Below are positions 22,552 through 23,837 of a stretch of DNA of 23,837 nt, in pieces (positions within the stretch are counted from its first letter, which is position 1; every line of letters begins with the position of its first letter). The DNA comes from a virus (taxonomy: Duplodnaviria; Heunggongvirae; Uroviricota; Caudoviricetes). Position numbers and translations under genes: made by a program. Location of the stretch: the IMG/VR virus record IMGVR_UViG_2534681835_000037, positions 1 through 23,837 of that record; one strand, 5' to 3'. The notes beneath the pieces are model-generated. The model saw only the letters and a program-made list of their open reading frames with translations, did no database searches and was not told the origin of the DNA.

Positions 22552-23837
22552 ATGAGTAACGCATCATACCCGACAGGCGTTGAAAACCATGGAGGATCAC
22601 TCCGTATATGGTTTCACTATAATGGCAAACGTGTCAGAGAAAACCTCGGTGTTCCTGACACAGCCAAAAACCGGAAGATCGCTGGTGAACTTCGCACTTC
22701 CGTTTGTTTTGCAATCAGAATGGGGAGTTTCGACTACGCCGCGCAGTTCCCTAATTCCCCTAACCTGAAACACTTTGGTCTGGGAAAAAGAGAGATAACC
22801 GTTAAGGCACTTTCGGAAAAATGGTTGGACCTTAAGAAAATTGAGATTTGTGCGAATGCACATAACCGTTACCAGTCAGTAATTAAAAACATGTTACCAA
22901 TGTTAGGTGAAAAAAACTGGTTTCATCCATAACAAAAGAGGATTTACTTTTCGTAAGGAGAGATTTGTTGACCGGTTACCAAAAGCTTTCTAATGGAAAG
23001 ACTTCTTCCATAAAAGGGCGCTCAGTGGTCACGGTAAACTACTATATGACAACCATAGCTGGAATGTTTCAATTTGCAACAGATAATGGTTATACCTCAG
23101 GAAACCCATTTAACGGTCTGGCTCCCTTAAAAAAGTCCAAGGTAAAACCAGATCCTCTCACCCGTGACGAATTTATTCGTTTTATTGAGGCTTGCCGTCA
23201 TCAACAAACAAAAAACCTGTGGATTCTCGCTGTATACACGGGTATTCGTCACGGGGAGCTGGTATCGCTGGCATGGGAAGATATAGATCTTAAAGCAAGG
23301 ACTATAACCATCCGTAGGAATTATACAAAACTTGGCGAATTCACTCCACCAAAAACCGATGCTGGCACCGGAAGGACAATTCATCTGGTTCAACCAGCTA
23401 TTGATGCTCTTAAAAGCCAGGCGGAAATGACCATGCTTGGAAAGCAACATTCTGTAGAGGTAAAGCAGAGGGAATATGGGAGAACAGCTGTGCATAAATG
23501 TACTTTTGTTTTTAGCCCTCAGGTAATAAAACAGCAGCAGTTGTCTGGACCTCACTACAAAGTTGACTCCATCAGGGAGTCATGGACAAGTATCTTAAAA
23601 CGCGCAGGTCTGAGACACAGAAAATCGTACCAATCCAGGCATACTTATGCATGCTGGTCACTTGCCGCTGGAGCTAATCCTAGTTTTATCGCAAGCCAGA
23701 TGGGCCACACAAACGCACAAATGGTATTCAATGTTTACGGAGCATGGATGAAAGACAACAATCACGAACAGATAGAACTCCTTAACAAAAGACTATCTGA
23801 AAGTGTCCCATGTATGCCCCATAAGAAAGTTGGGTAA
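22552..23837 (+). pseudogene. int: Tyrosine integrase (lambda Int family) interrupted by a frameshift in an A7 tract
   Basis: N-terminal arm-binding-like ORF (22552..22932) stops at 22930-22932; the catalytic domain (R..H-x-x-R..Y; ...SRHTYACWSLAAGANPSFIASQMGHTN...VYGAWM) continues in another frame to 23837. The two frames join at GGTGAAAAAAACTGG (A run 22910-22916); one extra A would give a continuous integrase of about 420 aa. Confidence 0.75.

Follow-up and report, generated by a model that had tools for sequence, protein, structure and literature searches.

A probable homopolymer error splits the mlrA-specific integrase gene of a prophage in a draft Escherichia coli genome

Among the phages most similar at the locus described here, BP-4795, Stx2a_1447/WGPS2 and VT1-Sakai encode tyrosine integrases whose genes are single 1287-nt open reading frames (ORFs) containing a run of eight adenines (A8), with xis upstream and mlrA immediately downstream. 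The window analysed in this work (the whole stretch of 23,837 nucleotides of phage DNA) ends with an integrase gene that has the same neighbours and is 98.7-99.7% identical to those three at the nucleotide level over the whole gene; unlike them, it is 1286 nt long and has a run of seven adenines (A7), at which the coding sequence is divided between two reading frames. In IS1, which we take to be the insertion sequence cluster of the survey cited below, the InsAB' protein is made via a frameshift, and the two-frame layout of the element is conserved and required. In the E. coli dnaX gene a programmed -1 frameshift takes place on A_AAA_AAG, accompanied by an upstream SD sequence and a downstream stem-loop. 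The heptamer A_AAA_AAC is a proven shift site in an insertion sequence cluster that has no established stimulator, and unstimulated shift motifs reach 2-10 times a background of about 0.05% (PMC4066793). In E. coli, A_AAA_AAC is far less shifty than A_AAA_AAG, and in the herpesvirus thymidine kinase gene a "savior indel" goes together with low-level compensatory frameshifting on the G7 run (PMC5009743).

The integrase gene and the two frames at its A7 tract

The features of the split gene in the window are as follows.

22910..22916, + strand: A7 homopolymer, read from the sequence; nearly every other copy has A8 at this place
22552..22932, + strand: integrase 5' ORF (126 aa plus stop), with the arm-DNA-binding domain and the beginning of the core-binding domain
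22911..23837, + strand: integrase 3' reading frame, with the remaining core-binding part and the catalytic domain (PF00589)
22909..22917, + strand: zero-frame codons GAA AAA AAC, which present the heptamer A_AAA_AAC in the frame needed for tandem -1 slippage
22955..22970, + strand: SD-like AAGGAG (22955-22960) with in-frame TTG codons at 22965 and 22968, from the sequence and the gene calls

By direct reading, the tract stands in the context ATGTTAGGTG, AAAAAAA, CTGG. The 5' ORF starts with ATG at 22552 and stops with TAA at 22930-22932, five codons past the A7 tract, its C-terminal end being MLPMLGEKNWFHP. The frame one base behind is closed by TGA at 22908-22910, is open from 22911, where it begins KKLVSSITKEDLLFVRRDLLTGYQ, and runs to TAA at 23835-23837, which are the final three bases of the window. 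The two frames are thus one base out of register and their overlap is restricted to 22911-22929, with the A7 tract at the 5' edge of that overlap. Repair by insertion of one A gives a continuous integrase of 428 aa; at least 1000 public contigs encode exactly this protein, under the name tyrosine integrase (Q6HA01_9CAUD). The first-pass annotation had read the locus as an integrase split by a single base at an A7 tract that A8 would make continuous again, and both points were borne out. Its division of the product into an arm-binding and a catalytic part agrees with the Pfam placement, with the refinement that the core-binding domain is what gets cut: the break falls at residues 121-122, within a weakly detected SAM-like core-binding region (residues 83-131, Pfam). 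The 126-aa N-terminal ORF was considered as the conserved product and rejected, as it occurs on a single contig, versus at least 1000 for the 428-aa protein. The window holds 13 homopolymer runs of seven or more bases, of which the A7 is one; the A7 tract is significant because the intact orthologues differ there, not because of run statistics.

The gene is an mlrA (yehV)-specific tyrosine integrase of BP-4795/VT1-Sakai-type lambdoid phages. The arm domain matches Pfam PF12167 (Arm-DNA-bind_2) at residues 7-70 above the gathering score (E about 8e-25 to 2e-24), and the catalytic domain matches Pfam PF00589 (Phage_integrase) at residues 203-396, downstream of the shift. When the repaired protein is aligned to Tn1549 Int (6emy), the active-site R, K, R, H and Y fall at about R233, K268, R363, H386 and Y396, and the motifs TGIRHGEL, PKTDAG, SRHT, MGHTN and FNVY are paired between the two proteins; the first His of the HxxR motif is replaced by Tyr (YQSRHT) in this repaired form found on at least 1000 contigs. 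The gene lies at the prophage end, with xis directly 5' and mlrA, yohO and yehW directly 3', an order seen in the finished chromosome and in the SRR094977 contig discussed below. It matches prophage integrases in 523 complete E. coli genomes, and every listed match spans 1287 nt. As recorded, the gene is a family member by descent, but it is either a pseudogene or an erroneous sequence: its two domains are parted at A7, and in the orthologues both lie on one 1287-nt ORF.

Gene callers start a 289-aa ORF of the 3' frame at TTG 22968 (position 724-1593 on the SRR094977 contig), and the same TTG is chosen whenever the integrase gene is split. The AAGGAG sequence, a strong SD-like element, sits 4 and 7 nt 5' of the two in-frame TTG codons (in the codons for Arg-Arg-Asp-Leu-Leu), and together with TTG 22968 it may constitute a weak internal start in the integrase gene.

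The tract in other copies of the gene

When a 75-nt probe across the tract was searched, 451 E. coli records were matched, of which one (FDAARGOS_943) was ungapped and therefore A7; the 29 other records listed all span 76 nt. An exact-pattern scan of IMG/VR found A8 at 69 loci and A7 at 2. Among 67 full-length IMG/VR copies, an unselected sample, 63 are intact, two carry A7, one has a nonsense codon and one an insertion elsewhere, so that the tract accounts for two of the four disrupted copies. Approximately 99% of the other integrase copies are A8, and the natural state of the gene is a single 428-aa ORF that reads GAA AAA AAA CTG (Glu-Lys-Lys-Leu) at this place. The comparison with orthologous integrases, which the first-pass annotation had named as a check, thus gives A8 and a continuous ORF as the conserved state. 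An allele with 80% identity, the intR of other Stx phages, reads GAAAAACGT at the tract position (codons GGG GAA AAA CGT CTT) and has no long run.

The exact 289-aa downstream ORF occurs on 14 contigs; among the ten listed, eight have A7, one has A10 and one a nonsense codon. Carriers of A7 include the finished genome FDAARGOS_943 and eight other assemblies with SRA accession numbers ranging from early to late. At least four int allele clusters contain the contraction, A8 dominates every cluster and the A7 variants are nested within; A7 therefore arises, or gets mis-called, repeatedly, and marks no lineage. In FDAARGOS_943 the gene is the pseudogene I6H00_RS01310, called "frameshifted" by PGAP, and like the window it has A7 in the same tract at the same mlrA location. 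Its allele differs from that of the window (97.7% identity, 36 substitutions in xis-int). Since that prophage is heavily degraded by IS66 and IS600 elements and the assembly is finished, the frameshift in FDAARGOS_943 is probably real. In another A7 contig, L003 of IMG/VR, the tract is the only net length difference from the best finished match in 8.9 kb, which fits an error and a real mutation equally. Two Logan contigs, L080 (SRR29524037) and L083 (SRR31203334), have identical xis-int sequences, both with A7; their chromosomal flanks differ at 74 of 4304 bases (1.7%) and their upstream and remaining phage DNA differs by about 0.4%, so either the A7 contractions are independent or an A7 phage has moved between hosts.

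Three contigs show other lesions of the gene, natural or apparent. The A10 tract lies in the metagenome contig L081 (3546-4834; ENA ERZ27272474 k141_1122). The Logan contig L084 (9586-10870) combines A7 with a second one-base deletion at int position 74. In contig L085 (4408-5694) the tract is A8 and a stop follows at codon 130, eight codons further on.

The occurrence of A7, A8 and A10 among natural sequences on several backgrounds, part of which may be sequencing error, together with the place of the tract as the main single disruption site in a small unselected sample, invites the reading that A8 is a phase-variable contingency tract, whose reversible A8/A7 switching would hedge between a locked and an excisable prophage. 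We regard this as very unlikely: A7 is rare (0.2-3%) and some of its cases are possibly sequencing errors, the absence of a tract from the related 80% allele speaks against deep conservation, and an A8 run coding for Lys-Lys is unremarkable.

The first-pass annotation had also offered a slippery tract as an explanation. In such programmed recoding, -1 ribosomal frameshifting on A_AAA_AAC, or transcriptional slippage, would join the two Int frames. The heptamer does stand in the correct zero-frame register, the -1 frame is open from 22911, and this is the same heptamer as the proven shift site of an insertion sequence cluster without an established stimulator (PMC4066793). But the two-frame layout is not conserved, being present in one of 451 E. 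coli records and 2 of 71 IMG/VR loci; every int allele cluster is dominated by the in-frame A8; and at the tract neither a downstream hairpin or pseudoknot nor an upstream SD was found as a stimulatory element. The 94 nt at 22917-23010 fold no better than shuffled sequences (z=-0.25), and no SD-like element lies 10-14 nt upstream of the tract, where the only candidate is an AGGTG directly abutting the run. IS1 insA-insB' has the identical heptamer in the same register, also with no known stimulator, but its two-frame layout is conserved, whereas the single-frame layout is the conserved one in the integrase and the heptamer exists only in the rare A7 variants. The dnaX site resembles the tract as an A-rich lysine slippery run, and differs from it in having AAG, an SD at a stimulatory distance and a downstream hairpin. 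With the layout not conserved, no structure, no SD and a tract-free 80% allele, programmed frameshifting was rejected as a designed feature, and we consider it extremely improbable as an explanation of the split.

Decoding slippage at a low level could restore the frame at the A7 tract and nowhere else, and a true A7 allele might leak some full-length Int, judging from the behaviour of such motifs elsewhere. The case resembles the herpesvirus thymidine kinase gene in that a one-base homopolymer indel would be partly compensable by slippage on the same run, and is unlike the savior indel in that neither a selected indel nor a functional leak is in evidence at the integrase. Combining slippage with reversion, A8 might act as both a decoding and a mutational switch, in which A7 would leak a little full-length Int, through -1 slippage of the IS1 kind on A_AAA_AAC or through transcriptional slippage, and could revert to A8; we give this a very slight chance. 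If it were true, the prophage would be mostly, not irreversibly, locked in lysogens, with the 126-aa arm-binding fragment as a possible further competitor at the arm sites. That A7 turns up in several alleles and hosts, among them the identical xis-int of L080 and L083, is compatible with this reading.

The source draft and the finished 8E genome

The window is contig AIGJ01000050.1 of the draft assembly GCA_000249875.2, window position 1 being contig position 1, and the proteins created by the private frameshifts of this draft are found only on that contig. We infer that the draft is that of E. coli O111:H8 DEC8E, because DEC8B is GCF_000249815 and DEC10E is GCF_000250075 and the accessions run in steps of 20. 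Of 5426 complete E. coli genomes, just one reaches 80% or more coverage of the window: NZ_CP077465.1 (99.9% identity), a finished chromosome of "O111:H8 strain 8E" of human origin from Denmark, which contains the same prophage with A8. Their name, serotype, host and uniquely shared prophage suggest that 8E and DEC8E are the same strain.

Base by base, the window differs from 8E by 16 substitutions and 8 one-base indels; all eight indels are deletions in the draft and seven of them lie in homopolymers. Over window positions 5900-23837 (17.9 kb of unique sequence) the sole difference is A7 versus A8. The other differences, i.e. the 16 substitutions and the seven remaining deletions (six of them in homopolymers), are confined to 1911-5899, a lysis and esterase region present in a median of three and up to eight copies per genome.

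1911, 2192, 3239, 3874, 4340, 4679 and 5899: other one-base deletions of the draft, from comparison with 8E
3512-3779 and 5307-5599: clusters of draft substitutions, from comparison with 8E

Deletions become steeply more frequent as runs lengthen, affecting 1 of 12672 single bases but 2 of 12 runs of seven bases and 1 of 3 runs of eight. The seven deletions at 1911-5899 split a P22_AR_N antirepressor gene (approximately 1613-2181, - strand) and a SASA/DUF6645 esterase gene (approximately 3879-5826, - strand), both of which are intact in 8E. An 861-nt stretch spanning three of the deletions is longer in all 25 listed genomes (864 nt in 24 and 863 nt in one), and the three deletions are private to the draft, occurring as a set in no listed genome. 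Thirteen of the substitutions and one deletion are those of a paralogous prophage copy within 8E, interleaved with orthologue-specific sites, and the substitution cluster at 5307-5599 matches another 8E prophage at 99.7%. As the window alternates between orthologous and paralogous states in a three-way alignment, the late-region consensus of the draft is a collapsed-repeat mosaic from a genome like 8E, and not divergence. The seven deletions were considered as direct proof of read-level error, and this use of them is weakened by their all lying in the multi-copy mosaic region; what they demonstrate is poor reliability of the draft in that region, which need not extend to unique sequence.

The A7 of the draft is probably a homopolymer error, as judged from the sequence comparisons. 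The reads of this early draft genome, presumably from a platform prone to homopolymer errors, would have under-called the A8 run, and A7 would have been carried into the consensus; the strain itself would then probably have A8 and an intact integrase. In favour of an error, the finished genome, apparently from the same strain, shows A8 and no other difference in the unique sequence. The repaired protein, moreover, is 100% identical to the one on at least 1000 contigs, and there has therefore been no decay after the shift. The frequencies given above also count on this side, A7 being commoner in the older, draft-derived IMG/VR set (2 of 71) than among finished-genome records (1 of 451). If 8E is DEC8E re-sequenced, a real A7 requires a new mutation in one laboratory stock, and an early-draft mis-call of an eight-base run is much more likely than that; if the two are merely close relatives, the prior for a real A7, taken from the observed frequencies, is about 0.2-1%.

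Evidence against an error comes from the 126-aa ORF, which is otherwise recorded only in an independent k-mer assembly (Logan) of SRR094977, and there too the tract is A7. The contig, of 6,371 bases, is identical to window 22245-23837 (1,593 bases) and continues through mlrA to osmF; against 8E, the A7/A8 site is its sole difference in 4,594 bases, about 3 kb of which is chromosomal flank. The A7 is therefore the majority state in at least one read set, not an assembler quirk. Further, both T8 runs and all nine remaining seven-base runs in the window's unique sequence are correct relative to 8E, and genuine A7 alleles occur in other strains.

It is accordingly possible, though we hold it doubtful, that a genuine A8-to-A7 contraction took place by slipped-strand mispairing at replication in the DEC8E stock, making int a pseudogene. 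The NCBI draft and the Logan assembly of SRR094977 share the A7; the same contraction recurs on at least four int allele clusters, including that of the finished FDAARGOS_943, and one metagenome contig has A10; and the tract is the site of half of the disruptions (two of four) in the 67 full-length IMG/VR genes. The int gene would also be under relaxed selection because xis holds an IS remnant and terL is split in the near-identical 8E; with xis already broken, selection would not oppose a real int frameshift. But the finished genome of apparently the same strain is A8, secondary mutations downstream of the shift were not found, the draft carries many other private one-base deletions, and the background of real A7 among finished genomes is approximately 0.2%. 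Of the three explanations offered in the first-pass annotation, the slippery tract is not supported, the real mutation is kept as a rival, and sequencing error is favoured for this record because the same-strain-like 8E has A8 and the draft consensus is faulty elsewhere.

Prophage defects and the meaning of the split

Apart from int, the window contains an interruption of xis, of which the first four codons (ATG CAG ACA ATC) are at 22087-22098, followed by an IS remnant.

22099..22272, + strand: IS1203/IS629 remnant of 174 bp, internally deleted, located after xis codon 4 with ATC on both sides
22273..22518, + strand: remainder of xis (DUF1233 family), lacking ATG and the first four codons relative to the intact 84-aa Xis

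Annotated IS1203 copies share their 3' end with bases 8-174 of the remnant at 100% identity. The remnant is real because the finished 8E genome has it too; there, PGAP annotates xisR with ATC as first codon, the remaining xis having no canonical start. From its position in the gene, the remnant probably abolishes Xis independently of the int frameshift. The suggestion that an inactivating int mutation locks the prophage in place was therefore overstated, xis being already interrupted.

In 8E, a roughly 10-kb element (approximately 1842876-1853229 of NZ_CP077465.1) has inserted into terL, the large terminase gene of the prophage, and splits it just beyond the left end of the window. With its own tyrosine integrase, HTH regulator, BRO-N protein, Icd-like protein, DNA primase, SSB and ClpP-like protease/major capsid fusion, this element recalls a phage satellite, P4-like or of the capsid-forming PICI-like kind. 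The window begins at a contig end inside the 5' terL fragment, and the possibility that it represents a truncated prophage remnant was rejected, since the 8E prophage continues via head, tail and tail-fibre genes to btsS.

If the contraction were real, Int would be truncated after residue 121 (plus five out-of-frame codons), within the core-binding domain; the cell might go on producing the 126-aa arm-binding fragment, any translation of the catalytic part would have to begin at the weak internal TTG, and the prophage could neither excise nor reintegrate. The loss of int would add little to a prophage already crippled at xis, and in DEC8E it would be a commonplace slipped-strand frameshift, of the sort that genome annotation already records as a matter of routine. 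Homopolymer error remains the preferred reading: the split is most likely a draft error, at most an ordinary slipped-strand pseudogene, and neither novel nor surprising. Taken at face value, the record would have the prophage scored as grounded or domesticated with a dead integrase, when the strain most likely has an intact int and the real defects of the prophage are elsewhere, i.e. the IS1203 remnant in xis within the window and the split terL in the finished genome. The A8 run is the commonest single disruption site of this widespread mlrA/yehV Stx-type integrase in public data, and in surveys of prophage decay the read support at the run should be checked before pseudogenes are counted.

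The window has a three-gene set at 7344-10202, in the interval from the Q antiterminator to the lysis genes that holds stx in Stx phages. The set looks like a defence or moron island; its genes, and iraM nearby, are as follows.

7344-8501: DUF262/GmrSD_N gene
8504-9193: HEPN-like MAE_28990/MAE_18760 nuclease gene
9162-10202: DNA cytosine methyltransferase gene, convergent
6127-6453: iraM gene, near the island
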